A stretch of 64,000 nucleotides of DNA from Usitatibacter sp. (GTDB lineage Bacteria > Pseudomonadota > Gammaproteobacteria > Burkholderiales > Usitatibacteraceae), in NCBI GenBank assembly GCA_035656735.1, contig DASRRY010000047.1:9500-73499 (forward strand), given 5' to 3'. The position numbers were made by a program, and so were the translations under genes. Below the pieces are notes generated by a model that saw only the letters and a program-made list of their open reading frames with translations, had not been told where the DNA came from and ran no database searches. Below are positions 11,176-31,074 of this stretch, one piece after another (within the stretch, counting starts at the first letter, position 1; each line of letters begins with the position of its first letter).

Positions 11176-11223
11176 GCGACAGGAAGCGACAGTGGTCTGT
11201 CCCCTGTCGTTCCCCTGTCGTTT
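11174..11223. terminator. Compound inverted/tandem repeat between convergent genes (likely bidirectional terminator)
   Basis: AAGCGACAG occurs twice in tandem (11174-11193), then tggt, then CTGTC and a perfect tandem CCCCTGTCGTT x2 (11201-11222) ending in TTTT. CGACAG and CTGTCG are reverse complements. Confidence 0.45.
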
Positions 11224-11808
11224 TCAGAGGCCGGCGATGCGCCGGTCGACGAGCGCGAGGAAGCGCTTGCGCTCGTCGTCGCCGATGGAGTCCATCGCGT
11301 ACTGCGCGAGGAAGATCTTCTTCGCGCGCGGGTGCGCGAGGTTCGCGATGCCGCGCATGAGCGCGCGCCGGTTCGGGTCGCCGACCAGTGTCTCGTTGAT
11401 CGTGCGCGGAGCGCCATAGGTCGTCACGGCCGCGAAGCGCACGATGTGGTGCAGCCGCGAGCGGGGCTTGCCGTCGACCATCGTGAACGCGATGCCGGGA
11501 AGCCAGACGCGGTCGAGGTAGCCCTTGAGGATCGCCGGCATCCCGTAGAACCACGTGGGAAACACGAACGCGAGCCCCTGCGCCTCGCGCAGGCGGCGGA
11601 TATGCGACTCGACCTCCGGATGGGGCGCACCCTCGTCGTTGTACTTGCGGCGCTCCTCGTAGCCCAGCACCGGGTTGAAGCGCTCGGCGTAGAGGTCGCA
11701 ATCGTCGATGTCGTGACCGTTCGCCCGCAGGACCGCGACCACGCGCTCGTGCAGCGCCGCGTCGAAGCTGGCGGGATCGGGATGGGCGAAGAGGACGAGG
11801 TAACGCAT
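11224..11808 (-). CDS. Flavodoxin-like-fold NAD(P)H (quinone) oxidoreductase
   Basis: MRYLVLFAHPDPASF... and FVFPTWFYGMPAILKGYLDRV are typical of the Flavodoxin_2/NQO family. Start trimmed to ATG 11808 inside track ORF 11224..11949. Confidence 0.8.
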   Translation of the reverse strand: MRYLVLFAHPDPASFDAALHERVVAVLRANGHDIDDCDLYAERFNPVLGYEERRKYNDEGAPHPEVESHIRRLREAQGLAFVFPTWFYGMPAILKGYLDRVWLPGIAFTMVDGKPRSRLHHIVRFAAVTTYGAPRTINETLVGDPNRRALMRGIANLAHPRAKKIFLAQYAMDSIGDDERKRFLALVDRRIAGL

Positions 11809-11929
11809 GGGGGGCTTGGCCACGGAATGACCGCCACCAGGCTCCCGCGTTCGGGATGGGCCGTTGGAATCATCAACTTTCCGGTGGGGCGGCTGTCCCC
11901 CGGGTACCACCGTTTCCGGGGGAATCGCC

Positions 11930-12418
11930 ATGAAGCTCGCCACCGCCATCGCGGCCCTCGCCGCGGCCGCACCGATCGCCGCCCTCGCGCAAGCCGTCTA
12001 CCCGGCGCCGCGCGTGGTGCCCTATGACATGCCGCGCGACCTGTACGACACCTGCGCGGCGCGCCAGGACGCGCTGGCGCAGCGCCGGGCCGACCTCGAG
12101 CAGCGGCGTGCCGCGCTCGACCGCGAGAACGAGCGCCTTGCGCGCGAGGGCCAGCGGCTCGCGGAAGAGCTGCGCCGCCTCGACTCCCGCGACGCCAACG
12201 CCGTCGATCGCTACAACGAACGGCAGCAGCGGTACAACGAGCGCGTGGCCGAGCACAACCGCCGCGCCGCCGACATGAACGACGAGGCGTCGATGACGAA
12301 CGCCGACATCCAGTACATGCTCAACGATTGCGTCCCGCGCGGCTTCGTGTGGCGCGACCGCGACTGGTGGGAACGCGACCGGCCGTACTGGAACGGCGAC
12401 CGCTACCGGCTTCGCTGA
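11930..12418 (+). CDS. Secreted coiled-coil hypothetical protein
   Basis: Signal peptide MKLATAIAALAAAAPIAALAQA, a charged heptad-like region (RRADLEQRRAALDRENERLAREGQRLAEELRRL), and a W/R/D-rich tail. Confidence 0.6.
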   Translation: MKLATAIAALAAAAPIAALAQAVYPAPRVVPYDMPRDLYDTCAARQDALAQRRADLEQRRAALDRENERLAREGQRLAEELRRLDSRDANAVDRYNERQQRYNERVAEHNRRAADMNDEASMTNADIQYMLNDCVPRGFVWRDRDWWERDRPYWNGDRYRLR

Positions 12419-12423
12419 AACGC

Positions 12424-12446
12424 TCCCTCTTCCCCGGGAGAGAGGG
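12424..12446. terminator. GC-rich hairpin between convergent genes
   Basis: CCCTCTTCCCC/GGGAGAGAGGG imperfect palindrome in the 41-bp spacer between the coiled-coil gene and tex. Confidence 0.3.
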
Positions 12447-12459
12447 CCGCGTCAAGGGT

Positions 12460-14856
<2,397 letters not shown>

Positions 14857-16574: not shown

Positions 16575-17537
16575 GTGTCGTTCAAACGCTGGATGGTCGC
16601 CGCGGCGGCCCTTCTGTTCGCATTCGCGGCGCAGGCCGACGATTATCCCGACAAGCCGATCCGGCTCATCGTGCCTTTCCCGCCCGGGGGCGGCACCGAC
16701 ATCATGTCGCGCGTCGTGGCCCAGAAGCTTTCGGAGGCGAAGCACTGGACGGTGGTGATCGAGAATCGCCCCGGTGCCGGCGGCAACATCGGCATCGAGG
16801 CGGCGGCCAAGTCCCGGCCCGACGGCTACACGCTCGTCATGGGGCAGACCAGCAACCTCGCGATCAACCCGACGCTCTACAAGGCCTTGCCGTACGACCC
16901 GCTGGGGGACCTGGCGCCCGTCGTGCTCGTGGGCCAGGGACCGGCGGCGATCGCGGTGCGCGCCGAGTCCCCGATGAAGTCGCTGGCGGACCTCATCCGG
17001 ACGGCGCAGGCGAAACCCGGGCAGGTGACGATGGCCACGCCGGGCAATGGAACGGTGGCGCACCTCTCGGGCGTGCGCCTGATGCAGGCCGCGGGGGTGC
17101 AGTTCGAGCACATCCCCTACAAGGGCGCGTCCGCCGCGCTTCCCGACCTCATGGGGGGCAACGTCGATTTCTACATGTCGTCAGTGCCGAGCGTGCAGGG
17201 CCACGTCGCGAGCGGCAAGCTGCGCGCGCTCGCCGTCACCTCGCTCAAGCGCTCGCCGGTCTTCCCCGATACGCCCACCGTCGCCGAGACCTTTCCCGGC
17301 TTCAACGCGGTGACCTGGTTCGGCATCCTGGCGCCGGCGGGCACGCCGAAGGCGATCGTGGACAAGCTGAATGGCGAGATCAACGCGGTCCTCAAGGACC
17401 CGTCGGTGCGCAAGGCCATCGAGAAGGAAGGCGGCAGCGTCGAGGGCGGCACGGCGCAACAGTTCCACGATTTCATCCGCGACGAGATGGCGAGCTGGGC
17501 CGTGGTGGTGAAGCAGTCGGGCGCGAAGATCGACTGA
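16575..17537 (+). CDS. Bug-family (TctC-like) tripartite tricarboxylate transporter substrate-binding protein
   Basis: Signal peptide, then DYPDKPIRLIVPFPPGGGTDIMSRVVA, HIPYKGASAAL and FGILAPAGTPKAIVDKLN, all typical Bug motifs. GTG start follows GGAGGAAA. Confidence 0.9.
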   Translation: MSFKRWMVAAAALLFAFAAQADDYPDKPIRLIVPFPPGGGTDIMSRVVAQKLSEAKHWTVVIENRPGAGGNIGIEAAAKSRPDGYTLVMGQTSNLAINPTLYKALPYDPLGDLAPVVLVGQGPAAIAVRAESPMKSLADLIRTAQAKPGQVTMATPGNGTVAHLSGVRLMQAAGVQFEHIPYKGASAALPDLMGGNVDFYMSSVPSVQGHVASGKLRALAVTSLKRSPVFPDTPTVAETFPGFNAVTWFGILAPAGTPKAIVDKLNGEINAVLKDPSVRKAIEKEGGSVEGGTAQQFHDFIRDEMASWAVVVKQSGAKID

Positions 17538-17550
17538 TGCGGATGGCGTC

Positions 17551-18267
17551 ATGAGCGGGATGCTCAAGGTCCGCGTCTGGCGCGGACGCGAGGATGGGCG
17601 GTTCGCGGCGTACGAAGTGCCGCGCCACGAGAGCCAGACGGTGCTCGACGTGGTGACGTACATCCAGCGCGCGCTCGAGCCCTCGCTCGCCTATCGCTAC
17701 GCCTGCCGCGTCGGCATGTGCGGCTCCTGCGCGATGACGGTGAACGGTGTCGCGCGCTGGACCTGCCGCACGCACGTCTCGCGCGTCGCGAAGGAGGGCG
17801 AGCTCGAGGTGGCGCCGCTGTCGAACCTGCCCATCATCAAGGACCTCGCGACCGACATGACGGATTTCTTCGACAAGTGGGCGCGCGCGCGCGGCCGCTT
17901 CAAGGGCGCGCAGACGCGCCGCGAGGATTTCGCGCGCGTGGAGCCCGCGTCGAGCGCGCGGCGCGAGGCCGACGCCGGCATCGAGTGCATCGGCTGCGGC
18001 GTCTGCTACGCGTCGTGCGACGTCGTGGCATGGCGGCCCGACTTCCTCGGGCCCGCCGCGTTGAACCGCGCCTGGACCCTGGTGAACGATGCCCGCGACG
18101 TCGAGCGGCGCGAGCGCCTCGCGGCCGTCGCGGGCGACGCGGGATGCCACGCCTGCCATACGCAGGGCTCGTGCACCGAGCGCTGCCCGAAGCATCTCGA
18201 GCCCACGCGGGCCATCGCGGGACTGAAGCGCCTCGTCGCCAAGGCCGCCGGACGGGGCGAGCTGTGA
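17551..18267 (+). CDS. Succinate dehydrogenase/fumarate reductase-type iron-sulfur subunit
   Basis: 2Fe-2S CRVGMCGSC..C, 4Fe-4S CIGCGVCYASC, 3Fe-4S CHTQGSCTERCP. Confidence 0.9.
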   Translation: MSGMLKVRVWRGREDGRFAAYEVPRHESQTVLDVVTYIQRALEPSLAYRYACRVGMCGSCAMTVNGVARWTCRTHVSRVAKEGELEVAPLSNLPIIKDLATDMTDFFDKWARARGRFKGAQTRREDFARVEPASSARREADAGIECIGCGVCYASCDVVAWRPDFLGPAALNRAWTLVNDARDVERRERLAAVAGDAGCHACHTQGSCTERCPKHLEPTRAIAGLKRLVAKAAGRGEL

Positions 18268-18608
18268 CGCCGGCCGCGCGCGAGGCGCGCCTCTGGTACT
18301 GGCAGCGCATGAGCGCGATGGTGCTGGCCGCCTGCGTGCTGGTGCACCTGGCCACGATCGTCTACGCCGTCCACCACGGCCTCACGGCGACCGAGATCCT
18401 GTCGCGCACGCGCGGCAGCCTCGTCTTCGGCGCCTTCTATGTCGTGTTCCTCGCGGCATGCGCGGTGCACGTGCCGATCGGGCTCGCGGCGATCCTCGAG
18501 GAGTGGTTCCGCATTCCCCGCGGCGGCGCGCGCATCGTCGCGGCGGTCTTCGCCGCCGCCATCGTGGGCTTCGGCGTGGCGGCGCTGGAAGGCGTGGTGT
18601 TCGCATGA
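18264..18608 (+). CDS. Sdh/Frd-type hydrophobic membrane anchor subunit (SdhD-like)
   Basis: GTG at 18264 overlaps the preceding stop (GTGA). Three hydrophobic helices. WYWQRMSAMVL and HVPIGLAAILEEW resemble SdhD anchor motifs. Confidence 0.7.
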   Translation: MTPAAREARLWYWQRMSAMVLAACVLVHLATIVYAVHHGLTATEILSRTRGSLVFGAFYVVFLAACAVHVPIGLAAILEEWFRIPRGGARIVAAVFAAAIVGFGVAALEGVVFA

Positions 18609-18961
18609 GGCGCTTCAACGACGCGCGGGCGCGCTCCCATGCGTCTTACTGGGCGTTCGTGGTCCACCGCGTCTCGGGGCTCGCCCTGGCGCTCTTCCTG
18701 CCGGTGCATCTCTGGGCGCTCGCCCGGGCGATCCACGGCGAGGCCGCGCTCGACGGCTTCCTGCGCGCGGTGGACCGGCCGGCGTTCAAGCTGGCCGAAT
18801 GGGGCCTCGTGGTGCTTCTCGCGCTGCACGCCGCGGGAGGCGTAAGGTTGTTGCTGATCGAGTTCGGAAACTGGTCCGGCCTGCGCAAGGACCTGATCGC
18901 GCTGTCCGCCGGCTTCGGCGTCATCGCGGGCCTCGCCTTCGCGCTCGCCCTTTTCTACTAG
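18605..18961 (+). CDS. Sdh/Frd-type membrane anchor subunit (SdhC/FrdC-like)
   Basis: ATG at 18605 overlaps the preceding stop (ATGA). Three hydrophobic helices. HRVSGLALALFLPVH and LLALHAAGG resemble cytochrome-b/FrdC-type anchors. Confidence 0.7.
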   Translation: MRRFNDARARSHASYWAFVVHRVSGLALALFLPVHLWALARAIHGEAALDGFLRAVDRPAFKLAEWGLVVLLALHAAGGVRLLLIEFGNWSGLRKDLIALSAGFGVIAGLAFALALFY

Positions 18962-18982
18962 AACAAAACCCGGAGGAGCAAG

Positions 18983-19960
18983 ATGCAACGTCGTACGCTT
19001 TTGAAGGCTGCCGCAGTCGTCGTCGCCGCGCTCACGGCCCCATGGGCCGCCGCGCAATCGGGCTGGCCCACGCGCCCCGTGACGCTCATCGTGCCGTTCT
19101 CCGCCGGCGGCACCACCGACATCGTCGCGCGCCTCGTGGGGGCGCGCCTGTCGCAGGTCTGGGGCCAACCGGTGGTGGTCGAGGATCGTCCCGGCGCCGG
19201 CGGCAACATCGGCGCGGGCGTCGTGGCCAAGGCGCCGCCGGACGGCTACACCCTGCTCGTGCCGTCGGGAAGCATCCTCACGGTGAACCCGCACATCTAC
19301 AAGGACATGGGCTTCGACGTGCAGAAGGACCTGGTACCCATCACCGACATCGCCTCGGGCCCGATGGTGGTCGTGGTGAACCCGAACGTGAAGGCGCGCA
19401 ACCTGAAGGAGCTGATCTCGCTCGCGAAGTCCGAGCCGGGCCAGATCAATTTCGGCTCCGCCGGCGTCGGCAGCCAGGTGCACATGGCGGGGGAGAACTT
19501 CGCCGACGCCGCGGGCATCGACATCAGGCACATCCCGTACAAGGGCGAAGCGATGGGGCTGAACGACCTCATGGGCGGCCAGATCCAGCTCATGGTCGGC
19601 AACATCGCGGCCGCGTCGAACTTCGTGAAGAGCGGGCGCCTGCGCGCGCTCGCCGTCACGAGCCGCGAGCGCTCGCCGATGATGCCCGACGTGCCGACCG
19701 CCGACGAGGCCGGACTGGCGGGCTTCGAGAGCGTGGGCTGGTTCGGGCTCATGGCGCCCGCCGGCACGCCGCACGCGATCGTGGCCAAGATCCAGGCCGA
19801 CACGGCGAAGGTGCTGCAAACCGCCGACGTGAAGACGGCGTTGGCCGCCCAGGGCATGGTGCCGGTGGGCAACAAGCCCGAGGAGATGGCGCAAGCCGTC
19901 GCCGAGGAATCGAGGAAGTGGGCGAGAGTCGTCGCCAACCGCCATTTGCAGGCGCATTGA
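18983..19960 (+). CDS. Bug-family (TctC-like) substrate-binding protein
   Basis: Signal peptide, then WPTRPVTLIVPFSAGGTTDIVARLV, HIPYKGEAMGL and FGLMAPAGTPHAIVAKI. Confidence 0.9.
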   Translation: MQRRTLLKAAAVVVAALTAPWAAAQSGWPTRPVTLIVPFSAGGTTDIVARLVGARLSQVWGQPVVVEDRPGAGGNIGAGVVAKAPPDGYTLLVPSGSILTVNPHIYKDMGFDVQKDLVPITDIASGPMVVVVNPNVKARNLKELISLAKSEPGQINFGSAGVGSQVHMAGENFADAAGIDIRHIPYKGEAMGLNDLMGGQIQLMVGNIAAASNFVKSGRLRALAVTSRERSPMMPDVPTADEAGLAGFESVGWFGLMAPAGTPHAIVAKIQADTAKVLQTADVKTALAAQGMVPVGNKPEEMAQAVAEESRKWARVVANRHLQAH

Positions 19961-19970
19961 GGAAGGCCCC

Positions 19971-20846
19971 ATGCAGGTCGATCTGACGCAGGTCGAGGAA
20001 GCGGCGAAGGACCTCTACATCCGCGCGCTGAAGGTGCTTCCCGACGACGTGAAGCAGGGCATCGCTCGCCTCGCCGCGAGCGAGACGAACGAGCGTGCGC
20101 GCACCGTGCTGGGCACCATCGTCACCAACATCCGCGTGGCCGAGGAGACCGACAACCTCACGTGCCAGGACACGGGAGTCCCGATCTACAACGTGACGAT
20201 CGGCCGCGGGGTGAACGTCGATGGCGTGGACCTCGAGGCCGCCATCGTGCGCGGCTGCGCGCGCGCCACGCGCGAGCACCCGTTGAGATCCTCGGTGGTG
20301 CATCCGCTCACGCGCGACAACGACCACACGTCATGCGGCATCCGCATCCCCGTGATCAACGTGCAGTTCTCGGACGCGCGCGACGAGCTCACGCTGGAGA
20401 TGATCCCGAAGGGCAGCGGCAGCGAGAACAACACGTTCCTGCGCATGGCGATTCCCGCCGAGGGCGTCGCGGCGATCAAGACCTTCGTGGTCGATTGCGT
20501 GATCGCGGCCGGGGGCAAGACCTGCCCGCCGACCATCGTCGGCGTGGGCATCGGCGGCTCCGCCGACCTGTGCGTGCACCTGGCGAAGATCGCCGCGACC
20601 AGCCGCCCGCTCGGCAGCCGCTGCGCCGATGCCGAGGGCGCGAAGCTCGAGGAGCAGCTCACCGCCGCCGTGAACCGGCTCGGCGTGGGCCCCCAGGGAT
20701 TGGGCGGCGACTCGACCGCCTTCGCCGTGCACGTCGAGCTCGCGGCGACCCATATCACGATGAATCCGGTCGCGGTCAACATGCAGTGCCACGCGGTGCG
20801 CCGCGCGTCGGCCACCTTCACGCCCGGCGGCGTCCGGTACCACTGA
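19971..20846 (+). CDS. Fe-S-dependent hydro-lyase alpha subunit (L-tartrate dehydratase TtdA / class I fumarase alpha type)
   Basis: CQDTGVPIY cluster-ligand motif plus downstream Cys in GGKTCPP and MQCHA. Size is ~290 aa. Confidence 0.88.
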   Translation: MQVDLTQVEEAAKDLYIRALKVLPDDVKQGIARLAASETNERARTVLGTIVTNIRVAEETDNLTCQDTGVPIYNVTIGRGVNVDGVDLEAAIVRGCARATREHPLRSSVVHPLTRDNDHTSCGIRIPVINVQFSDARDELTLEMIPKGSGSENNTFLRMAIPAEGVAAIKTFVVDCVIAAGGKTCPPTIVGVGIGGSADLCVHLAKIAATSRPLGSRCADAEGAKLEEQLTAAVNRLGVGPQGLGGDSTAFAVHVELAATHITMNPVAVNMQCHAVRRASATFTPGGVRYH

Positions 20847-20847
20847 C

Positions 20848-21462
20848 ATGGCGCATCACGACGTCGACATGCCGGTGGACGAGGCGACCGTGCGCGCGTG
20901 GAACGTGGGCGATACCGTCACGCTCAACGGAACGCTGTACGGCATCCGCGACCGCACCCAGATCGAGATGTTCGACCGCCAGCGCAAGACGCGCTTCGAC
21001 CTGCGGGGCCACGCCGTGATCCACACGGCGCCCAACGTGCGCAAGGTCGAGAAGAGCGCGAGATTCCCCGCGGGCTACGAGCCGATCTGCGTGGGGACCA
21101 CGACCTCGGCGCGCATGGAACGCTTCACCCGGCCGCTCATGCGGCAATACGGCGTGCGCATCGTGATCGGCAAGGGCGGCCTGCAGGAGGATTCGGGCGC
21201 GTCCTTCCGCGAGATGGGCGGAGTCTACCTCGCGATCATCGGCGGCGCGGCGGCCCTGGAGACCACGTGGATCGAGGCGATCGAGGATGTGGACCTCGAC
21301 GACGTCAATCCCGAGTCGCTCTGGAAGTTCCGCGTGAAGGGATTCGGGCCGCTCCTCGTGGGCATGGATTCGCACGGCGGCAACCTCTACACCGAGGTGG
21401 CGAACGAGTCGCAATCGCGCCGCGCGGCGGTCCTCGCCTCGCTCGGCGTGACAGCGAAATGA
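20848..21462 (+). CDS. Fe-S-dependent hydro-lyase beta subunit (TtdB / class I fumarase beta type)
   Basis: LNGTLYGIRDRTQ, VIHTAPNV, IGKGG and GPLLVGMDSHGGNLY motifs of the beta-subunit swivel domain. One-bp spacer after the alpha subunit. Confidence 0.88.
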   Translation: MAHHDVDMPVDEATVRAWNVGDTVTLNGTLYGIRDRTQIEMFDRQRKTRFDLRGHAVIHTAPNVRKVEKSARFPAGYEPICVGTTTSARMERFTRPLMRQYGVRIVIGKGGLQEDSGASFREMGGVYLAIIGGAAALETTWIEAIEDVDLDDVNPESLWKFRVKGFGPLLVGMDSHGGNLYTEVANESQSRRAAVLASLGVTAK

Positions 21463-23186
21463 TGCGCACGATCCACACCGACATCCTGATCCTCGGGTCC
21501 GGCGGCGCGGGACTCTTCGCCGCGCTGCACGCGCACCAGGCGAATCCCGGCCTCTCGATCACGGTCGCGGTGAAGGGCCTGCTCGGCAAGTGCGGCTGCA
21601 CGCGGATGGTGCAGGGCGGCTACAACGTGGCGCTCGCGGCCGGCGACTCGGTCGAGCGCCATTTCATGGACACGATCGAGGGCGGCAAGTGGCTCCCCGA
21701 CCAGGAGCTCGCGTGGACGCTCGTCACCAAGGCGATCGAGCGCATCCATGAGCTCGAGAACGAGCTCGGCTGCTTCTTCGACCGCAATCCCGACGGCACC
21801 GTGCACCAGAAGGCCTTCGCGGGCCAGACCTTCGATCGCACCGTGCACAAGGGCGACCTGACCGGCATCGAGATCATCAACCGCCTCTCGGAGCAGGTGT
21901 GGTCGCGCGGCATCGCCCGTCTCGAGGAGCATCGCGCCATCGAGCTGGTGAAGACGGCGGACGGATCGGCGCTCGCCGGCGTGCTCATGATCGACATGCC
22001 CACCGGCGCTTTCACCTTCGTGCAGGCGAAGGCGGTGCTGCTCGCCACCGGCGGCGGCCCCACGATGTACCGCTTCCATACCCCCTCGGGCGACAAGAGC
22101 TGCGACGGCCTCGCCATGGCGCTGCGCGCGGGCCTCGAGCTGCGCGACATGGAGATGGTGCAGTTCCATCCGACGGGGCTGCTCGCCGGCGCGCATACGC
22201 GCATGACGGGCACCGTGCTGGAGGAAGGGCTGCGCGGCGCGGGCGGATACCTGCTCGGCGGCGACCGCCAGCGCTTCATGCAGAAATACGACCCGAGGAA
22301 CGAGCGCGCCACCCGCGACATCGTCTCGCGCTCCATCTTCCGCGAGATGCGCGACGGCAACGTGACGCCCAACGGCGGCGTCTACCTGCAGATGCACCAC
22401 CTCGGTCCCGCGGAGGTGCGCCGCCAGTTCAAGGGCATGGTCGAGCGCTGCGCCGATTGCGGCTTCGATCTCGCGGGCGGCCTGGTCGAGGTCGTGCCGA
22501 CCGCGCACTACATGATGGGCGGCGTGGTCTTTCGCGTCGATGGGGCGACGAGGCTCGCCGGCCTCTTCGCGGCGGGCGAGGACACGGGCGGTGTGCACGG
22601 AGCCAACCGCCTGGGCGGCAACGGCGTCGCCAACTCCACGGTCTTCGGCGGCATCGCGGGCGAGGCCATGGCGGCATGGGTCGCGCGCGAGGGCAGGCTG
22701 CGCGAGCCGGACCGCGAGGCGATCGCATCCAGCATCGCCGCGCACGAGCAGCCCTTCACGCTGCCGCCCGGCGACCTGGGCGCCATCCGGGAAGAGCTCT
22801 ACGCCTGCATGTGGGACGACGTCGGCATCCTGCGCACGGCGGGCGGGCTCAAGCGCGCGCTCTCGCGCCTGCAGGCGCTGGACGAGGCGCTCGCGCGAAC
22901 CGGCGTCGCCGACGGCGATCGCGTGTTCAACCTCACGTGGCACGACTGGATGAACTTGAGGAGCCTGGTGGCGGTGAGCCGCGTGATCGCGACCGCGGCG
23001 CTGGCCCGCGAGGACTCGCGCGGCGCCCATTTCCGCGAGGACTTTCCCGACGCCGGCCCCATCGCGACCTCGGACTACACCGTGGTGCGCGCGACCGCGT
23101 CGGGGCTCGAGCTCGCGCGCGAGCCGGTGCGCTTCACGCGCGTGAAGCCCGGCGAGACGCTGGTGCGCGAGGCCGCGACGGCGTGA
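21459..23186 (+). CDS. Sdh/Frd/L-aspartate-oxidase-family FAD flavoprotein subunit
   Basis: ATG at 21459 overlaps the beta-subunit stop (ATGA). Dinucleotide fold ILILGSGGAG. Also FHPTG, ERATRDIVSR, PTAHYMMGG, GEDTGGVHGANRLGGN, and the C-terminal EDSRGAHFRED. Confidence 0.9.
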   Translation: MMRTIHTDILILGSGGAGLFAALHAHQANPGLSITVAVKGLLGKCGCTRMVQGGYNVALAAGDSVERHFMDTIEGGKWLPDQELAWTLVTKAIERIHELENELGCFFDRNPDGTVHQKAFAGQTFDRTVHKGDLTGIEIINRLSEQVWSRGIARLEEHRAIELVKTADGSALAGVLMIDMPTGAFTFVQAKAVLLATGGGPTMYRFHTPSGDKSCDGLAMALRAGLELRDMEMVQFHPTGLLAGAHTRMTGTVLEEGLRGAGGYLLGGDRQRFMQKYDPRNERATRDIVSRSIFREMRDGNVTPNGGVYLQMHHLGPAEVRRQFKGMVERCADCGFDLAGGLVEVVPTAHYMMGGVVFRVDGATRLAGLFAAGEDTGGVHGANRLGGNGVANSTVFGGIAGEAMAAWVAREGRLREPDREAIASSIAAHEQPFTLPPGDLGAIREELYACMWDDVGILRTAGGLKRALSRLQALDEALARTGVADGDRVFNLTWHDWMNLRSLVAVSRVIATAALAREDSRGAHFREDFPDAGPIATSDYTVVRATASGLELAREPVRFTRVKPGETLVREAATA

Positions 23187-23190
23187 GCCG

Positions 23191-24804
23191 ATGAGCGCGC
23201 CGAAGCGCCGCGGCGCCGACGCCCTCGCCCGCACGCTGCGGCGTTCGGGCGTGCGCCGCATCTTCACGCTTTCGGGCAACCACGTCATGCCGGTCTTCGA
23301 CGCGGCGCTCGACGCGGGGCTGGATCTCGTGCACGTGCGCCACGAGGCCGCGGCGGTGCACATGGCCGACGCGTGGGCGCGCCTCACGGGCGAGGTGGGC
23401 GTGGCGCTGGTGACGGGCGGTCCCGGCCACGCGAACGCGGTCGGCGCGCTCTACACCGCCGCGATGGCGGAAGCGCCCGTGCTGCTGCTCTCCGGCCACG
23501 CGCCGCTGGCGCAGCTCGGCCGCGGCGCCTTCCAGGAGATGCGCCAGGCCGAGATCGCGGTGCCGCTCACCAAGGCCGCGGGGACCGCGCAGCGCGCCGA
23601 CACGCTGGCGCGCGAAGTCGTCCAGGCCATGGCGCTCGCCGCGAGCGGGCGCGCGGGCCCCGTCCACGTGAGCCTGCCGCAAGACGTGCTGGAAGCGGGC
23701 GCACCGGATGACGATGCGGCGTACGCGGCGCGGCCCGCGCCGGCCGCGACCTTCGATGCGGCCGCCTTCCTCGCCCCGATGCAGCGCGCGCGGCGCCCGC
23801 TCATCCTCTGCGGGCCGTCGTGCATGTCGCATGAAGGCCGGGCGCGCATGCGTGCCCTGGAGGAAGCGAGCGGCATTCCCGTGGTCGGCATGGAAAGCCC
23901 GCGCGGCATCGCGGACCCGGCTCTCGGCGCCTTCGCGCAGCTGCTCGCGACGGCCGATCGCGTGCTTCTCCTCGGCAAGCGCCTGGACTTCACGCTGCGC
24001 TTCGGCGCGCCGCCCGCCTTCGACGCGGCCTGCGAGTTCCTGCAGCTCGATCCCGAGACGGCGGAGATCGAGCGCACGGCCCGCGCCGTGGGCAACCGCA
24101 TCGTGGCGAGCGCGGTCGCCGACATTCGCGCGTCGCTGGAGGCCCTCACGCGCGCGGCGCGCGTCGCCGAGTCGGGCTGGCTCGGCGAGGTGCGCGACGC
24201 CATCGCTTTCCGCCCGGCGGCGTGGGATGGCGCACGGGCGTCGCAGCCGGGCCGCCTGCATCCCGTGCAGGCATTGCGTCCGCTGCAGGCGCTCCTCGAC
24301 GCCCATCCGCGCAGCGTCTTCATCGCCGACGGCGGCGAGTTCGGCCAATGGGCGCAAGCCTGCCTGGACGCGCCGCATCGCGTGATCAACGGGATGGCCG
24401 GCTCGATCGGGGCCGGGCTGCCCTTCGCGCTCGCCGCGCGCCTGGCGCAACCGGAGGCGCCCGTGATCGCGGCGCTCGGCGACGGGACGTTCGGTTTCCA
24501 CTGCGCGGAGATCGATACCGCCGTGCGCTACGGGCTGCCCTTCGTGGCCGTGGTCGGCAACGACGCGCGCTGGAACGCCGAATACCAGATCCAGCTGCGG
24601 GACTATGGAGCCGGGCGCCTCGTGGGATGCGAGCTGCTGCCCGCGCGCTATGAGCGGGTGGCGCAGGGCTTCGGCGCGCACGGCGAGAGCGTGACCGACG
24701 GCGCGTCGCTGCTGCCCGCCGCGCAGCGCGCGATGGCGTCCTCACGGCCCGCGGTGCTGAACGTGATGATCGAGGGCCTCGCCGCGCCCGACGTGCGGCG
24801 CTAG
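23191..24804 (+). CDS. Thiamine-diphosphate-dependent enzyme (acetolactate synthase / oxalyl-CoA decarboxylase-like family)
   Basis: N-terminal Pyr domain (IFTLSGNHVMPVFDA, VTGGPGHANA) and a C-terminal ThDP motif GDGTFGF...VVGNDARWN. Confidence 0.9.
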   Translation: MSAPKRRGADALARTLRRSGVRRIFTLSGNHVMPVFDAALDAGLDLVHVRHEAAAVHMADAWARLTGEVGVALVTGGPGHANAVGALYTAAMAEAPVLLLSGHAPLAQLGRGAFQEMRQAEIAVPLTKAAGTAQRADTLAREVVQAMALAASGRAGPVHVSLPQDVLEAGAPDDDAAYAARPAPAATFDAAAFLAPMQRARRPLILCGPSCMSHEGRARMRALEEASGIPVVGMESPRGIADPALGAFAQLLATADRVLLLGKRLDFTLRFGAPPAFDAACEFLQLDPETAEIERTARAVGNRIVASAVADIRASLEALTRAARVAESGWLGEVRDAIAFRPAAWDGARASQPGRLHPVQALRPLQALLDAHPRSVFIADGGEFGQWAQACLDAPHRVINGMAGSIGAGLPFALAARLAQPEAPVIAALGDGTFGFHCAEIDTAVRYGLPFVAVVGNDARWNAEYQIQLRDYGAGRLVGCELLPARYERVAQGFGAHGESVTDGASLLPAAQRAMASSRPAVLNVMIEGLAAPDVRR

Positions 24805-24921
24805 GGCCGCCGCGAGCCCCATCGGGCGTTTGTGGAATACTGGGATCGAACGCGTTGTTCTCCGTGCGCCGGACTGGGGTCCGGCCGCACCCACCCGGTC
24901 CACCACACAAGGAGAAAGGCA

Positions 24922-25374
24922 ATGCGAATCGTCACCTGTACGGGAATCGGCCTCGCCATGGCGCTCGCTGGAGGATGCTCGACGATGCACTCGATGATGG
25001 GAGGAGAGGAGGGCGAGAAGGTCGCGCTCTCCGGGTCGAACGAGGTGCCGGCGGTGAACACGTCGGCCAAGGGCAGCGGCACGGTGACCGTCGGCGCCGA
25101 TTGCAGCGTGAAGGCGGACATCAAGGTGAGCGGCATGACGGCCACCGCCGCGCACATCCACCAGGGCGCTCCCGGTGCCAACGGCAAGGTCCTGGTGCCG
25201 TTCGTGAAGGAGGGCGATGACCGCTTCGTCGCCCCCGAGGGCGCCAAGCTCGATACACAGGGCTGCGCCGATTACCGCGCGGGCAGGACGTACGTGAACG
25301 TCCACAGCGACGCCCACAAGGGCGGCGAGATCCGCGCCCCGCTCAAGGGCACGGGCGGGCACGGTGGCGCGTAG
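24922..25374 (+). CDS. CHRD-domain lipoprotein
   Basis: SD AAGGAGAAAGG. Lipobox LAGGC. CHRD-like segments LSGSNEVPAVNTSAKGSGTV, AAHIHQGAPGANG and YVNVHSDAHKGGEIR. Confidence 0.75.
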   Translation: MRIVTCTGIGLAMALAGGCSTMHSMMGGEEGEKVALSGSNEVPAVNTSAKGSGTVTVGADCSVKADIKVSGMTATAAHIHQGAPGANGKVLVPFVKEGDDRFVAPEGAKLDTQGCADYRAGRTYVNVHSDAHKGGEIRAPLKGTGGHGGA

Positions 25375-25873
25375 GATCGCGCCCGCGGTGCTGCTCGCGG
25401 CGGCGCTTCCCGCCGCCGCGGGCCCCGCGCTGGTGAACGAGCCCGCGCTTTCCACGGATGCCGCGATGCAGGCCGCCCAGGCCGCGCTCGCGGCGTGCCG
25501 CAAGGAAGGCCGGCACGTGAGCGTGACGGTCGTCGACGCCGCGGGCCGCACGAAGGTCTCGGTGCGCGACGACGGCGCGGCACCGCACACCGCCGAGCAC
25601 AGCTATCGCAAGGCGTACACCGCGTTGAGCTACCGCATGCCCTCGGCCGATTACGGCAAGCGCGCCGCGCAGGCGAAGGGCATCGCGATCGGCCCGCAGC
25701 TGCTGCCCGGCATCACGAGTGCCGCGGGCGGCGTGCCGATCAGGGCCGGCGGCACCACCATCGCGGCGATCGGCGTCTCGGGCACGCCCGCGAGCGCCGG
25801 CGGCGGCGAGGGCGACGCGGGCTGCGCCGCCGCGGGCGTGGAGCGCATCGCCGCCGATCTCGCGGCGCAGTGA
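25364..25873 (+). CDS. GlcG/HbpS-family (DUF336) protein with signal peptide
   Basis: [29 protein letters not shown] and GGVPI...[11 protein letters not shown] motifs. N-terminal hydrophobic leader. The GTG start overlaps the CHRD gene by 11 nt. Confidence 0.75.
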
Positions 25874-27509: not shown

Positions 27510-27701
27510 ATGGACCGAACCGCGAACCCGCCCTGCAACGCGCGCGAGGCATTGATCGCGCGCCTGGATGCCATCGCCGCGGAGCTGCGCGAGTATCCGC
27601 AGCCCATCGCGCGCTGCGACGCCCAGCTGGGCGCCCTCATCGAGGAGCAGGACCGGCTGCGCTCGGAGCTGGCGCGGCTCGCTCAGGCGAGCAGCCGGTA
27701 A
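27510..27701 (+). CDS. Small hypothetical coiled-coil protein with two Cys (63 aa)
   Basis: Within track ORF 27498..27701. ATG 27510 follows GGAGGA. Sequence MDRTANPPCNAREALIARLDAIAAELREYPQPIARCDAQLGALIEEQDRLRSELARL. The 3' end overlaps the kdpE 3' end by 19 nt. Confidence 0.4.
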   Translation: MDRTANPPCNAREALIARLDAIAAELREYPQPIARCDAQLGALIEEQDRLRSELARLAQASSR

Positions 27702-28369
27702 CCCACCGCCGTCTCCGTGAGGAGATGCCGCGGCTGCGCGGGATCGTCCTCGAGCTTCTGGCGCAGGTGCGCCATGTACACGCGCGCGTAGTGCGGCTGG
27801 TCCGCGCCCGCCGGTCCCCAGACCTCGCGCAGGATCTGGCGATGGGTGAGCACCTTCCCCGCGTTCGCGATCAATAGCGAGAGCAGGCGGAATTCGACGG
27901 GCGTGAGGTGCACCTCCTGCGCACCGCGCTTCACGGTTCGCGCCTCGAGGTCCACCTCCACGGAGCCGAAGCGGAAGGTGCGCGCGAGCTCCCCGGGCGG
28001 CTGGCGGCGGCGGCGCACCGTCGCACGCACGCGCGCGAGCAGCTCGCCCACCCCGAAGGGCTTCGTGAGGTAGTCGTCCGCTCCCGCGTCGAGCGCGGCG
28101 ATCTTGTCGCTCTCGCCCGCGCGCGCCGAGAGCACGATGACCGGCACCGCGGACCAGCCGCGCAGCTCGCGGATGAGCGCGACACCATCGCCGTCGGGCA
28201 GGCCGAGATCGACGATCACGAGGTCGGGCTTGCGCGTGCCGGCATCGATGAGGCCCTGCCTGTAGGTGCCGGTCTCGTGCACGTGCCAACCCTCGGCTTC
28301 GAGCGCCGTGCGCACGAAGCGCCGGATCTGGGGCTCGTCCTCGATGAGGAGCGCGGCCGGCGTGGTCAT
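27683..28369 (-). CDS. kdpE: KdpE, OmpR-family response regulator of the Kdp system
   Basis: Receiver LLIEDEP, VIVDLGLPDGDG, VLSAR, YLTKPF. Winged-helix C-terminal domain (LTPVEFRLLSLLIANAGKVLTHRQIL, VGYRL). Start overlaps the kdpD stop (ATGA). Confidence 0.9.
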   Translation of the reverse strand: MTTPAALLIEDEPQIRRFVRTALEAEGWHVHETGTYRQGLIDAGTRKPDLVIVDLGLPDGDGVALIRELRGWSAVPVIVLSARAGESDKIAALDAGADDYLTKPFGVGELLARVRATVRRRRQPPGELARTFRFGSVEVDLEARTVKRGAQEVHLTPVEFRLLSLLIANAGKVLTHRQILREVWGPAGADQPHYARVYMAHLRQKLEDDPAQPRHLLTETAVGYRLLA

Positions 28370-31056
28370 GCCGCCTTCACCTCGGGCGGCTCGCCGCGCG
28401 GCAGGCGGATCACGAAGCGCGCGCCGCGCGCACGCCCGATCTCGGCGACGACGCTGCCGCGATGCGCCTCGACGATCGCGCGGCAGATCGCCAGGCCGAG
28501 CCCCACGCCGGGCGTGGCGCTTTCGGACGCGCCCCGGGCGAACTTCTCGAAGACCGCCTCTTCCTGGCCGGCCGGGATGCCCGGCCCGTCGTCCTCGACC
28601 GCGATCTCGATCTCGCCCTCGAGCGCGTGAGCCGAGATGGCGACGCGGGCGTCGGGCTGCGTGTACTTGCCCGCGTTCTCGAGCAGGTTGGCCAGCACGC
28701 GCTCCATGAGCACGGCGTCCATCTGCACGAGCGGCAGGTCGCGCGGGATGTCCACGGCGACCTGGCGCGGGCCCAGTGCCGCGCGGCTCGCCGCGAGCGC
28801 GCTGCCCACGACTTCCTCGAGCGGGTGCCACTGCAGGTCGAGCCTCACCTCGCCGCTCTGGATCCGCGCCATGTCCAGGAGGTTGTTCACGAGCGCGATG
28901 AGGCGCTTCGTCTCGTCGCCGATGGTGCGGGCAATGTCGACCTGTTCCGGCGACATCGGCGGTCGCGTGAGCGCCATGGTCTCGGACAGGCCGAGCAGGG
29001 CGGCGAGCGGCGTGCGCAGGTCGTGCGAGAGGGCGGCCAAGAGCGAGTTGCGCAGCCGTTCGCTCTCGATCTTGATGAGCGCGTCGCGTGCGACGTCGAC
29101 GTAGTGCACGCGCTCGAGCGCGATGGCGGCGAGCGCGGCGAAGGTCTCGTACTGCCGCATCTGCTCCGGGATCATCAGCTCGCGCGAGCGCTCGGGACGG
29201 ATGGCAAGGATGCCGCGGGTGCGCATGGGCGCCTTGAGCGGCAGGAAGAGCCAGTCGTTGCCCGGCAGGGTGTCGGTCCCGGCGCCCGCGGGCTGCGTGT
29301 GGTCGAACGCCCACTGGGCCGCGGCCCAGTCCATGGGGTTGCGCATGACGTCATGCGTCATGCCGGAGAGCCTGCCGTGTTCGTCCGGCAGCAGAATCGC
29401 GACCTTCGCCCGGAACGCCCGTCCCATGAAGGCTTCGCCCGTCTCCACCACCTGGTCCGGCGTGAGCAAGCCCGACAGGTCGCGTGCGAATTCGTAGAGG
29501 GTGCGCGCGCGCGACTCCCGATGGCCCGCCACCAGCGCCTGGTAGCGCATGCCCGCGGTGAGCTGGCCCACGATGAGCCCCACCGCCAGCATCACGCCGA
29601 AGGTAAGCAGGTACTGCACGTCGCTCACCGCAAGCGTGTAGCGTGGCGGCACGAAGAAGAAGTCGAATGCGAGCACGTTGATCACGGCCGCCGCGACGGC
29701 GGGCCCGCGCCCCCAGCGCATGCCGACGAGTACCACCGAGAGCATGAACACCATCACGATGTTGGCGAGCTCGAAGTAGGGCGCGAGGAGCGCGGCGACG
29801 AATGTCGCGACGGCGCACGCCGCCAGCGTGCCGACGTAGCGCAGGCGCCGCTCGCGCGCCTTGGGATCGGCCTGGAGGGTCTCGACGATCGGCCGCGCCG
29901 GCACCGGCGCGCCAGCCTCGCGCGTCCCGCGGCCGATCTCCACGACGTCGAGATCCTCGCCGCCCGCGGCGATCGCATCGCTCAGCGTGCGCCGCCAGGG
30001 GAGGCGACGGCGCGGATCGCGGCCCACGACGACGGTGCCGATGTTCTCGTCGCGCGCATGCGCCACCAGCGCCGGGGCCACGTCGTTGCCCGTCAGGACC
30101 TGCGTCTGCGCGCCGAGGTCCTGCGCGAGCTTGAGCACGCGCAGGATCCGATCACGCTCCGCCGCGGCAACACGCTGCAGGCGCGGCGTCTCCACGTATA
30201 CCGCACGCCACTCGGCATCGAGCCGCTGGGCGAGGCGCGCGGCGGCGCGCACTACCTGTTCGGCGCCGGGGCGCGGCCCCACGCAGCAGAGCAGCCGCGA
30301 CTGCGTCTTCCACACGCCCTCGATCGATTTGTCCGCGCGGTACCGGCGGACGTCACCCTCGACCACGTCGGCGGTGCGGCGAAGCGCGAGCTCGCGCAGC
30401 GCGATGAGGTTGCCCTTGCGGAAGAAGTTGGCCGCGGCGCGCTCGGCCTGCTGCGGCAGGTAGACCTTGCCTTCCTTGAGCCGCTTCAGCAGCTCCTCCG
30501 GCGGCACGTCGACCAGGATCACCTCGTCGGCCTGGTCGAAGAAACTGTCCGGCACCGTTTCCCAGACCCGAATGCCGGTGATGCCTCCCACGACGTCGTT
30601 CAGGCTATCCAGGTGCTGCACGTTGAGTGTCGTGAACACGTCGATGCCGGCGCCGAGGAGCTCGGCCACGTCCTGCCATCGCTTGGGATGGCGCGAGCCA
30701 GGCGCGTTGGTGTGCGCCAGCTCGTCCACCAGGACGAGCTGCGGCTTGCGCGCCAGCGCGCCGTCGATGTCGAAGTCCCGCAGCTCGCGTCCCTTATGGT
30801 CGAGAGCCTGCCGCGGCAACAGCTCGAGCCCTTCGAGCAGGGCCTGGGTTTCGGCGCGCCCGTGCGTCTCGACGAGCCCCACGATGACGTCGCGGCCCTC
30901 CTCGCGGGCCCGGCGCGCGGCGAGGAGCATCGCGTACGTCTTGCCCGCACCGGCGGACGGGCCGAAGAAGATGCGCAGCTTGCCGCGCGCGGCCGCCTTC
31001 GCCTCGCGCTGCACGCGCGCGAGGAGGGCCTCGGGATCGGGGCGGGGCGTGCTCAT
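28366..31056 (-). CDS. kdpD: KdpD sensor histidine kinase
   Basis: N-terminal KdpD domain with GKLRIFFGPSAGAGKTYAML, a Usp-like region, four TM helices, a GAF-like region, H-box LLAALSHDLRTPL, and ATPase motifs NLLENAGKY, DDGPGIP, GVGLGLAIC. Start placed at ATG 31056 (track ATG 31077 is possible). Confidence 0.9.
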   Translation of the reverse strand: MSTPRPDPEALLARVQREAKAAARGKLRIFFGPSAGAGKTYAMLLAARRAREEGRDVIVGLVETHGRAETQALLEGLELLPRQALDHKGRELRDFDIDGALARKPQLVLVDELAHTNAPGSRHPKRWQDVAELLGAGIDVFTTLNVQHLDSLNDVVGGITGIRVWETVPDSFFDQADEVILVDVPPEELLKRLKEGKVYLPQQAERAAANFFRKGNLIALRELALRRTADVVEGDVRRYRADKSIEGVWKTQSRLLCCVGPRPGAEQVVRAAARLAQRLDAEWRAVYVETPRLQRVAAAERDRILRVLKLAQDLGAQTQVLTGNDVAPALVAHARDENIGTVVVGRDPRRRLPWRRTLSDAIAAGGEDLDVVEIGRGTREAGAPVPARPIVETLQADPKARERRLRYVGTLAACAVATFVAALLAPYFELANIVMVFMLSVVLVGMRWGRGPAVAAAVINVLAFDFFFVPPRYTLAVSDVQYLLTFGVMLAVGLIVGQLTAGMRYQALVAGHRESRARTLYEFARDLSGLLTPDQVVETGEAFMGRAFRAKVAILLPDEHGRLSGMTHDVMRNPMDWAAAQWAFDHTQPAGAGTDTLPGNDWLFLPLKAPMRTRGILAIRPERSRELMIPEQMRQYETFAALAAIALERVHYVDVARDALIKIESERLRNSLLAALSHDLRTPLAALLGLSETMALTRPPMSPEQVDIARTIGDETKRLIALVNNLLDMARIQSGEVRLDLQWHPLEEVVGSALAASRAALGPRQVAVDIPRDLPLVQMDAVLMERVLANLLENAGKYTQPDARVAISAHALEGEIEIAVEDDGPGIPAGQEEAVFEKFARGASESATPGVGLGLAICRAIVEAHRGSVVAEIGRARGARFVIRLPRGEPPEVKAA

Positions 31057-31074
31057 GGCGGGAAAGTCTAGGCC

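Follow-up and report, generated by a model that had tools for sequence, protein, structure and literature searches.

A window of 64 kb, part of a 205-kb metagenome contig of ~70% G+C from Usitatibacter sp. (DASRRY010000047.1), contains nine open reading frames (ORFs) on the forward strand between positions 16575 and 24804. They encode the four subunits of a complex-II-type enzyme of the succinate dehydrogenase/fumarate reductase (Sdh/Frd) superfamily, a two-subunit Fe-S hydro-lyase, two binding proteins of the TctC (Bug) family and a thiamine diphosphate (ThDP)-dependent enzyme (Table 1). The first-pass annotation, made from the sequence alone, had described a single same-strand series with spacers of 1-21 nt and three 4-nt overlaps, and both the sequence and the JGI gene calls on the source contig bear this out, except that JGI starts Bug1 18 nt later (16593). 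The spacers measure 13, 21, 10, 1 and 4 nt and the start/stop overlaps read GTGA (18264), ATGA (18605) and ATGA (21459). Its family assignments also stand, all nine being backed by Pfam and by NCBIfam (June 2026 release), against whose equivalog cut-offs we compared the scores; this release includes models for several sulfonate enzymes. A terminator scan inside the operon gave no terminator-like site above chance level, and the results of a promoter scan were no better than chance.

Table 1. Genes of the operon and the genes directly downstream, with positions in the window.
Feature	Position	Strand	Support
Bug1, periplasmic TctC-family solute-binding protein, Sec signal peptide	16575..17537	+	Pfam TctC 249.7 bits
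SdhB/FrdB-type iron-sulfur (FeS) subunit; 2Fe-2S, 4Fe-4S and 3Fe-4S motifs	17551..18267	+	TIGR00384 195.8 bits, cut-off 88
SdhD-like membrane anchor; start overlaps FeS stop (GTGA)	18264..18608	+	Pfam Sdh_cyt 24.2 bits, TIGR02968 29.6 bits
SdhC-like cytochrome b anchor; start overlaps SdhD-like stop (ATGA)	18605..18961	+	TIGR02970 62.6 bits, cut-off 52.3
Bug2, TctC-family binding protein, Tat-like signal	18983..19960	+	Pfam TctC 259.4 bits
Class I (4Fe-4S) hydro-lyase alpha subunit (hydA); proposed sulfoacrylate hydratase	19971..20846	+	Pfam Fumerase 286.9 bits
Class I hydro-lyase beta subunit (hydB)	20848..21462	+	Pfam Fumerase_C 103.6 bits
SdhA/FrdA-family flavoprotein, distinct subfamily; start overlaps hydB stop (ATGA)	21459..23186	+	FAD_binding_2 236 bits, Succ_DH_flav_C 98 bits
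ThDP-dependent enzyme, clade of 2-hydroxyacyl-CoA lyase, oxalyl-CoA decarboxylase and benzaldehyde lyase	23191..24804	+	all three TPP domains (Pfam)
CHRD-domain protein and HbpS/GlcG-like protein	24922..25873	+	Pfam CHRD 91.5 bits, HbpS-like 100.4 bits; JGI calls

Relatives of the flavoprotein were collected by scanning one genome per species, and gene order was counted in the 80 best loci. The scan yielded 596 or more loci whose flavoprotein shares 70-81% identity with that of the window, mostly in Burkholderiales with some in Methylobacterium and other Alphaproteobacteria. Of 56 informative loci, 52 have the FeS gene upstream in the same orientation, and in 55 of 72 the pair hydA-hydB immediately precedes the flavoprotein gene. 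This split order, FeS-D-C-(Bug)-hydratase-flavoprotein, whose conservation the first-pass annotation had proposed to check, occurs far beyond chance and is not a strain oddity. The family extends to marine Roseobacters, freshwater Polynucleobacter, soil Burkholderiales and haloarchaea. Plasmid-borne orthologues were found in Methylobacterium, Paracoccus, Sulfitobacter, Cupriavidus, Pseudomonas and Pseudorhizobium, some on conjugative plasmids, and on haloarchaeal plasmids. Cultured carriers of the cluster include Curvibacter delicatus NBRC 14919, Massilia niastensis DSM 21313, Imbroritus primus LMG 32992, Paraburkholderia diazotrophica, Polynucleobacter campilacus, Thiomonas sp. FB-6, Methylobacterium sp. 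Leaf104, Paracoccus versutus UW1 and Pseudorhizobium banfieldiae NT-26.

The flavoprotein gives comparable scores against solved FrdA, SdhA and NadB (213-290 bits), is ~35% identical to E. coli SdhA and falls below all NCBIfam equivalog cut-offs (TfrA 496/718, the best; sdhA_forward 332/727; fum_red_Fp 331/933; nadB 348/453). We aligned 62 orthologues with E. coli FrdA, SdhA and NadB. His237, Arg286, His350 and Arg384, which correspond to FrdA His232, Arg287, His355 and Arg390, are invariant in all 62. In the active-site loop FrdA Thr244 is replaced by Glu in every orthologue and Glu250 mostly by Ala, and a six-residue insertion after the HPTG motif, containing TRMTG, is likewise invariant in the 62. 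The Glu substitution and the TRMTG insertion would remodel the second acid-binding site; that the His-Arg-His-Arg set is kept while this site is remodelled supports dehydrogenation chemistry, and the altered loop together with the gene context appears to argue for a substrate other than succinate or fumarate. A NadB-like amino-acid (cysteate or aspartate) oxidase was also considered. The site of the amino-group-binding Glu121 of NadB is occupied by an invariant Phe, as in Sdh/Frd, which rules out such an oxidase, and because the NadB-type Glu121 is absent the substrate should not be an amino acid.

The FeS subunit is below cut-off for all equivalogs and 60-82% identical across the related loci, and its Cys motifs are all kept in an alignment with E. 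coli SdhB/FrdB and 41 orthologues. The SdhD-like anchor carries a family-conserved His aligned with the haem ligand His71 of E. coli SdhD, while the SdhC-like anchor has a conserved His aligned with SdhC His84 and a conserved HR.SG motif. Because the Fe-S motifs and both anchor haem-b ligands are kept, the architecture is predicted to be that of a succinate:quinone oxidoreductase (SQR), and the flavoprotein has Gln at the FrdA Glu49 position, like SdhA (Gln50). The complex thus shares with the type C SQR of E. coli, SdhCDAB, its four subunits, the FAD_binding_2 and Succ_DH_flav_C domains, the catalytic His/Arg/His/Arg set, the three Fe-S cluster motifs, two small anchors with both haem-b His and this Gln. 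It differs from SdhCDAB in having Cys for the FAD-linking His, Glu for the loop Thr and the TRMTG loop insertion; in addition its genes are split around a binding protein and the hydratase, some orthologues are plasmid-borne, and sulfonate genes make up the neighbourhood of the orthologues. The first-pass annotation had proposed a dedicated module paired with the Fe-S hydro-lyase rather than the housekeeping enzyme of the tricarboxylic acid (TCA) cycle, and this is supported, as the plasmid-borne, in part conjugative, orthologues and the ~35% identity to E. coli SdhA disfavour a TCA-cycle role. A tblastn search of the 64 kb found no canonical sdhCDAB.

The hydro-lyase alpha subunit scores 292.8 bits with the NCBIfam fumarate hydratase model NF004885, over the cut-off of 276, and the closest solved structure, that of the M. 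jannaschii fumarate hydratase (7XKY_A, 229 bits), aligns with it at all three Cys ligand positions. The beta subunit lies just under the cut-off of TIGR00723 (142.8 against 145.15 bits) and keeps the equivalents of R421, T467, T468, R471 and K491 of the Leishmania fumarate hydratase (5L2R); the enzyme as a whole keeps its catalytic and acid-binding residues. From these features we assign it to the class I (4Fe-4S) two-subunit fumarate hydratase family, a membership that does not in itself establish fumarate as the substrate. The earlier description of the enzyme as TtdAB-type did not hold up: the equivalog scores (TtdA, NF006084, 170.9 bits against 365; TtdB, NF006082, 142.8 bits against 264) rule out a TtdAB-type tartrate dehydratase. 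It belongs to the same fold families as 7XKY and E. coli TtdAB and has their three Cys ligands and their Arg/Thr/Thr/Arg/Lys set of substrate residues. In contrast to them, its beta subunit is under all equivalog cut-offs, it is always encoded beside an Sdh-like flavoprotein, and other lineages have a ~35% identical second hydratase subtype or a class II lyase instead.

We refer to the second subtype as the alpha-type and to that of the window as the beta-type. The alpha-type subunits are ~35% and 27% identical to those of the window, yet the flavoproteins of these clusters are still 64-74% identical. Ala replaces the Thr468 of the Leishmania enzyme, and the genes follow the flavoprotein gene, giving the order FeS-D-C-flavoprotein-hydA'-hydB' in six genome loci (L041, L047, L064-L066 and L079) and in most plasmid copies; the plasmid loci with this subtype are L087, L088, L090, L092, L094 and L097. 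Alpha-type versions of the cluster are abundant in the Roseobacter group. In L041 both subtypes stand in tandem (10745-13960 of that locus).

The neighbours of the orthologues point to sulfonate metabolism. We called and clustered ~1,060 ORFs across the 80 best genome loci, and recovered a set of recurrent neighbours that the window does not have: a split UxaA/GD_AH enzyme with small and large subunits, an Ldh_2 dehydrogenase that best matches the model for L-sulfolactate dehydrogenase, a D-2-hydroxyacid dehydrogenase, TauE/SafE sulfite exporters, GntR and LysR regulators, an SsuA-family ATP-binding cassette (ABC) transporter, a sulfatase, a SorA-like sulfite dehydrogenase and TauD. Among the 48 loci of at least 17 kb, 38 (79%) have a SuyB-like, TauE, SorA-like or sulfatase gene within 9 kb of the cluster, with SuyB-like genes in 29, Ldh_2 in 31 and TauE in 18. 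These genes often form one operon, for example GntR followed by SuyA-SuyB-ThDP-FeS-D-C-(sulfatase/TauE)-Bug-hydA-hydB-flavoprotein-(Bug)-Ldh_2. In the closest genome relatives (L002, L003 and L007, 79-81% identical) TauE lies directly 3' of the flavoprotein gene, where the window has the ThDP gene. The SuyB-like neighbours, large UxaA subunits that JGI labels (2R)-sulfolactate sulfo-lyase beta, are 68-79% identical to a UxaA-family protein of Paracoccus versutus whose gene is part of the arrangement GntR-SuyA-SuyB-exporter, and by sequence they look like true sulfolactate lyase orthologues. The association with SuyAB, Ldh_2 and SlcC belongs to the beta-type clusters, the window's type (33 of 80 loci); the six alpha-order genome loci have none of these genes.

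Seven of nine annotated plasmid records show the same co-localisation, the exceptions being P. seriniphilus and an unannotated Cupriavidus record. On P. versutus pTAV3 the cluster is followed by a YeiH-family 'sulfate exporter' and NIPSNAP, inside a larger island with TauE, Ldh and hydroxyacid dehydrogenases, a tripartite tricarboxylate transporter (TTT), HpsNOP-like genes, SuyAB and another exporter. Methylobacterium nodulans pMNOD01 carries it with two sulfite-dehydrogenase/cytochrome c pairs, a DctA-type symporter, YeiH and TauE. The conjugative plasmid of Pseudomonas sp. MPC6 has a TTT transporter, TauE and a porin before the cluster, NIPSNAP and YeiH after it and a sulfite oxidase nearby; a CoA-acylating malonate/methylmalonate-semialdehyde dehydrogenase (MMSDH; 695 bits, cut-off 448) also follows the cluster. 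Pseudorhizobium banfieldiae NT-26 also has a conjugative plasmid, on which a compact island, bordered by transfer genes and an insertion sequence element, comprises the cluster, YeiH, NIPSNAP, LysR, TauE and a tripartite ATP-independent periplasmic (TRAP) transporter, together with a YihU-like reductase (324 bits; the cut-off for sulfolactaldehyde reductase is 348) and a dehydrogenase of the succinate-semialdehyde type (SSADH). This island fits a conversion of 3-hydroxypropanesulfonate via 3-sulfopropanal to 3-sulfopropanoate (3-SP). Two haloarchaeal plasmids encode a 48% identical flavoprotein and an FeS subunit with a lyase of the argininosuccinate lyase (ASL)/fumarase class II family in place of the Fe-S hydratase, alongside SuyAB, Ldh, TauE and a TAXI-TRAP transporter. 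This lyase is also related to XcbC, which produces sulfoacrylate when bacteria synthesise coenzyme M. On the plasmid of Sulfitobacter sp. THAF37 (L088) a gene annotated 3-sulfinopropanoyl-CoA desulfinase (24415-25587) lies ~9 kb downstream of the hydratase genes and ~11 kb from the flavoprotein gene; the same locus has a pyridoxal phosphate-dependent aminotransferase with a LysR regulator upstream of its ThDP gene.

The sulfolactate module of Chromohalobacter and Paracoccus, attributed to Denger & Cook and to Rein et al., reportedly consists of SuyAB, ComC, SlcC, the TTT transporter SlcHFG and SuyZ/TauE. The same families flank or join the cluster in most relatives, and a Bug/TTT receptor is common to both, whereas none of the genes of that module is in the window. 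The sulfolactate pathway as described does not include the Sdh-like complex or the Fe-S hydratase, which would supply it from an upstream position.

Taken with the families of the operon itself, this context makes a role in organosulfonate catabolism probable. Three unrelated or distantly related types of lyase or hydratase share one orthologous dehydrogenase among sulfite and sulfolactate genes, from which we infer that the dehydrogenase makes an unsaturated sulfonated acid that is then hydrated. The simplest substrate would be 3-SP, the analogue of succinate in which one carboxylate is replaced by a sulfonate. One or both Bug proteins would capture it in the periplasm, with membrane partners encoded elsewhere. 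The complex-II-type enzyme, with its flavoprotein, three-cluster FeS subunit and two haem-b anchors, would take two hydrogens from C2-C3 and pass the electrons to quinone, giving 3-sulfoacrylate, the sulfo-analogue of fumarate. The 4Fe-4S hydro-lyase would then add water at C2 to form 3-sulfolactate, the malate analogue, by analogy with (S)-malate probably as the (R) enantiomer, since under the Cahn-Ingold-Prelog priority rules (R)-sulfolactate is the spatial equivalent of (S)-malate. (R)-Sulfolactate is the substrate of SuyAB, which in most relatives would cleave it to pyruvate and sulfite; alternatively ComC/SlcC-like dehydrogenases could oxidise it to sulfopyruvate, and the sulfite would leave via TauE or YeiH. 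In the organism of the window the co-transcribed ThDP enzyme probably decarboxylates a 2-oxo acid (sulfopyruvate), possibly with loss of sulfite. We regard the route from 3-SP through sulfoacrylate to sulfolactate, by a quinone-linked 3-SP dehydrogenase and a sulfoacrylate hydratase, as the best reading, evenly balanced between right and wrong. We suggest more tentatively that this is the first complex II homologue dedicated to an organosulfonate, a 3-SP:quinone oxidoreductase which with its Fe-S sulfoacrylate hydratase forms a sulfo-analogue of the succinate-fumarate-malate branch.

3-SP is a known product of homotaurine and 2,3-dihydroxypropanesulfonate (DHPS) metabolism and fermentation (PMC11489063; PMC12890257). 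Its degradation has been described as unreported except for a proposal in the thesis of J. Mayer, cited in PMC11489063, in which Roseovarius nubinhibens ISM converts 3-SP via sulfoacrylate to sulfolactate. As relayed there, that route has the same proposed intermediates as ours, and the accessible literature on it assigns no genes or enzymes. R. nubinhibens ISM, for which degradation of homotaurine via 3-SP has been reported, is not among the best 120 homologues of the Sulfitobacter flavoprotein. Cupriavidus necator H16 excretes 3-SP. A 2026 review considers the fate of 3-SP still unclear (PMC12890257), and growth-related breakdown of both homotaurine and sulfolactate is not limited to such strains: P. 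pantotrophus NKNCYSA reportedly degrades the two compounds (PMC12421959). Our literature searches found no paper assigning genes to 3-SP degradation and nothing on sulfomalate, sulfofumarate or sulfosuccinate desulfonation, and no NCBIfam model (June 2026) captures these operon proteins. The view of the first-pass annotation that no characterised pathway has this composition is upheld by both sources, and the operon is a new functional variant of complex II and class I hydratase. If the 3-SP route is right, it would supply the missing aerobic route for 3-SP, 3-hydroxypropanesulfonate and homotaurine, compounds that arise as end products when DHPS and sulfoquinovose are fermented and homotaurine is deaminated. 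The organosulfur cycle would gain a step it has lacked, encoded by a widespread cluster that is present in Burkholderiales of soil and freshwater, in marine Roseobacters, Methylobacterium and haloarchaea, and on conjugative plasmids. Thousands of genes labelled 'fumarate reductase', 'L-aspartate oxidase' or 'fumarate hydratase' would become interpretable, and the complex II scaffold would prove to have been adapted to a sulfonate, with an unusual Cys at the site of flavin attachment.

Several observations weigh against this route. The identity of the substrate rests on analogy and on the context of the orthologues, and the 64-kb window has no SuyAB, Ldh_2, TauE, sulfite dehydrogenase or SsuA-type gene, so that no sulfite-handling gene is at hand; a desulfonating enzyme with a sulfite exporter or dehydrogenase nearby is a feature of the orthologues and not of the window. 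Homologues of SlcC, SorA, sulfatase, MMSDH, YeiH, NIPSNAP, SSADH and the YihU-like reductase are also absent from the 64 kb, where the sole match in the search for sulfonate-related homologues was a generic ABC ATPase, and Pfam scans of 30 other window genes found nothing sulfur-related. Because the window carries none of these genes, the first-pass annotation could not have seen the sulfonate link. The FAD-linking His site (FrdA His44/SdhA His45) is occupied by Cys47 (21597-21599), and by Cys in 62 of 62 orthologues. Sdh needs the covalent-FAD His for succinate oxidation, and in classical complex II its absence favours the reductive direction, so its loss is unexpected in an enzyme that oxidises a succinate-like substrate. 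The invariant Cys may form an 8-alpha-S-cysteinyl FAD, which would be new in the complex II family. A second Cys, two residues upstream of Cys47, is kept in at least half of the flavoprotein orthologues. In NT-26 the YihU-like/SSADH pair could instead convert DHPS to sulfolactate, and in the alpha-type clusters, which have no SuyAB nearby and in one case carry a malonate-semialdehyde dehydrogenase, the product may differ: water may be added at the sulfonated carbon, with collapse to malonate semialdehyde and sulfite. Sulfosuccinate and 3-sulfinopropanoate fit parts of the evidence as well.

The ThDP enzyme adds to these difficulties. A simple route from 3-SP through sulfolactate to pyruvate leaves its role unexplained, the window operon has no dehydrogenase to turn sulfolactate into sulfopyruvate, and in a metagenome scan homologues 55-70% identical to it also occurred in unrelated neighbourhoods with no recurrent partner, except for a low-GC group with flanking TauD-like and GlcD-like genes. 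The protein (537 residues) is below every equivalog cut-off. Its best NCBIfam match is 2-hydroxyacyl-CoA lyase (HACL; 329.6/600), with oxalyl-CoA decarboxylase (OXC) at 200-220 against cut-offs of 557-739 and Xsc at 191.6/676 (TIGR03457) and 203.5/620 (NF005713). It shares the three-domain ThDP fold and the GDG...N motif with HACL, OXC, benzaldehyde lyase, Xsc and ComDE, and the closest solved structures are HACL (7PT1, 244 bits) and benzaldehyde lyase. Its alignment with 7PT1 ends at residue 572 of 612, ~40 residues short of the HACL C-terminus, and the operon has no CoA ligase or CoA transferase. A ThDP gene is linked to the cluster in 27 of the 80 loci, in 13 just downstream of the flavoprotein gene, as in the window, and in 10 just upstream of the FeS gene. 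The recurrent arrangement flavoprotein-(Bug)-ThDP-TauE, together with the TauD-like and GlcD-like neighbours, suggests that the enzyme acts on a 2-oxo acid derived from the hydratase product. A single active site may both decarboxylate sulfopyruvate and release sulfite, an Xsc-like chemistry starting from a 2-oxo acid. In the low-GC, Polynucleobacter-like group a TauD/TfdA-family dioxygenase flanks the ThDP homologue (L127, L132, L135, L139, L174 and L176), a GlcD-like FAD-linked oxidase does so in L127, L129 and L132, and in L132, L139 and L176 the ThDP and TauD-like, in part also GlcD-like, genes lie near the Sdh-like cluster.

As an alternative to the 3-SP route, the substrate could be another sulfur compound of the same shape, such as 3-sulfinopropanoate derived from 3-mercaptopropionate or 3,3'-dithiodipropionate, or water could add at the sulfur-bearing carbon in the window's beta-type cluster as in the alpha-type, so that the hydratase would release sulfite and malonate semialdehyde. 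The desulfinase gene near the Sulfitobacter cluster and the MMSDH in the MPC6 operon would then be accounted for, as would the operons of P. versutus, NT-26 and M. nodulans, which have exporters and no lyase, and a carbanion beside a carboxylate should be chemically easier to form than one beside a sulfonate. The release of sulfite by the hydratase does not agree, however, with the SuyAB, Ldh_2 and SlcC genes that are associated with clusters of the beta type, the type to which the window's belongs, and with no alpha-order genome locus, nor with the SuyAB genes that are adjacent in haloarchaea. We consider this alternative unlikely.

Sulfosuccinate catabolism shares the same sulfonate gene context. 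Here the complex would oxidise 2-sulfosuccinate to sulfofumarate, which the hydratase would convert either to a gem-hydroxysulfonate that collapses to oxaloacetate and sulfite, or to 3-sulfomalate, to be processed by a SuyAB-like lyase or by Ldh_2 and then decarboxylation. As a true dicarboxylate, sulfosuccinate suits the fully conserved acid-binding residues of the hydratase and the DctA-type importer of M. nodulans, and with oxaloacetate as product the minimal clusters, with exporters and a sulfite dehydrogenase only, would be self-sufficient. Sulfosuccinate is mainly a xenobiotic, though, and the family is abundant in Roseobacters, Polynucleobacter, soil Burkholderiales and haloarchaea. The MPC6 MMSDH and the NT-26 YihU-like/SSADH pair would stay unexplained, the SuyB-like neighbours resemble true sulfolactate lyases, and our literature search on sulfofumarate and sulfomalate came back empty. 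We judge sulfosuccinate to be rather improbable.

The first-pass annotation had favoured a quinone-linked module for a sulfur-free substituted dicarboxylate, either tartrate or the series methylsuccinate-mesaconate-citramalate. The enzyme families are indeed those of succinate, fumarate and tartrate chemistry, the window itself has no sulfur-related neighbour, and proteins of the TauE and SsuA families are not exclusively transporters of sulfonates or sulfite. Against this stand the TtdA and TtdB scores and the 79% of long related loci that carry sulfo-lyase, sulfite exporter, sulfite dehydrogenase or sulfatase genes; citramalate lyase, CoA-transferase and tartrate-specific genes are not recurrent in 160 related loci, and the cluster sits within DHPS/sulfolactate islands. 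No related locus points to tartrate or to the methylsuccinate series, and their neighbours are sulfonate genes, so we set these substrates aside as quite improbable. Reverse operation, as a quinol-dependent reductase with sulfoacrylate or fumarate as acceptor, or a second TCA-cycle Sdh with its fumarase, is very improbable: the loss of the covalent-FAD His (non-covalent FAD being, as established with FrdA His44 variants, typical of enzymes that only reduce fumarate) and the 'fumarate hydratase' score of the alpha subunit would agree with it, but the SQR-like architecture, in which both anchors ligate haem and Gln occupies the FrdA Glu49 position, and the mostly aerobic carriers do not. The sulfite exporters and dehydrogenases would also be left without explanation, as would the presence on plasmids and the invariant changes to the substrate loop.

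In 26 of the 56 informative loci a Bug2-like gene (45-64% identical) separates the anchor genes from hydA, and from this position we take Bug2 as the conserved in-cluster binding protein and a candidate receptor for the pathway substrate. Bug1, which has a ribosome-binding site (GGAGGA) 7 nt upstream of its GTG start, is 42% identical to Bug2. The related loci give only 30-45% identical matches to Bug1 and most have a divergent LysR regulator in its place, so it appears to be specific to the lineage of the window. The two TctC proteins may belong to a TTT system, and the earlier statement that TctA/TctB partners are absent agrees with our tblastn search, which found neither in the 64 kb. Orphan Bug proteins are common in Burkholderiales. 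We also tried to deduce the ligand from the Bug proteins, which proved uninformative, as the TTT binding proteins of the alpha-type clusters form a separate group ~30% identical to Bug1 and Bug2.

The genes around the operon are unrelated to it: upstream lie a divergent DUF5648 protein and Tex, and downstream the CHRD protein, the HbpS/GlcG-like protein, DUF1761, an aldo-keto reductase and the Kdp system. The order flavoprotein-ThDP-CHRD-HbpS recurs solely in the two closest metagenome relatives (L098 and L099) and not in more distant loci, and the membership of the CHRD and HbpS/GlcG-like genes in the operon is uncertain. The earlier claim that the window has no regulator stands in part. Relatives of the LysR and GntR regulators that flank related clusters were not found in the 64 kb by tblastn, whereas KdpE, a Crp-like, an AraC-like and a second response regulator are encoded elsewhere in it.

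Further from the operon, at 3792-6605 on the minus strand, a divergent ASL-like protein (argH model 200 bits, cut-off 279.5; second-best model the sulfoacrylate-forming XcbC, 169 bits) adjoins a protein of the mandelate racemase/enolase superfamily. A possible parallel is found in the haloarchaeal relatives, which pair an ASL-like lyase with the same flavoprotein family, and the Sulfitobacter cluster has a gene of the mandelate racemase/muconate lactonizing enzyme family beside its hydratase; a link between this pair and the operon is possible. At 6602-11175 (+) an ABC ATPase is followed by a protein of >1,200 residues in which an ABC-2 membrane domain is joined to a peptidase M1 domain. A complete potassium-uptake block, with kdpE, kdpD, kdpF/A/B/C and a Kup-type K+ transporter, occupies 27683-38054. 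At 40941-46618 a protein with an adenylate/guanylate cyclase domain is divergent from a 1,540-residue hybrid histidine kinase with dCache, GAF, multiple PAS and receiver domains, and an ORF of 1,030 residues lies at 46623-49715 on the minus strand, in a stretch where a filter on G+C at third codon positions (GC3) gave no gene.

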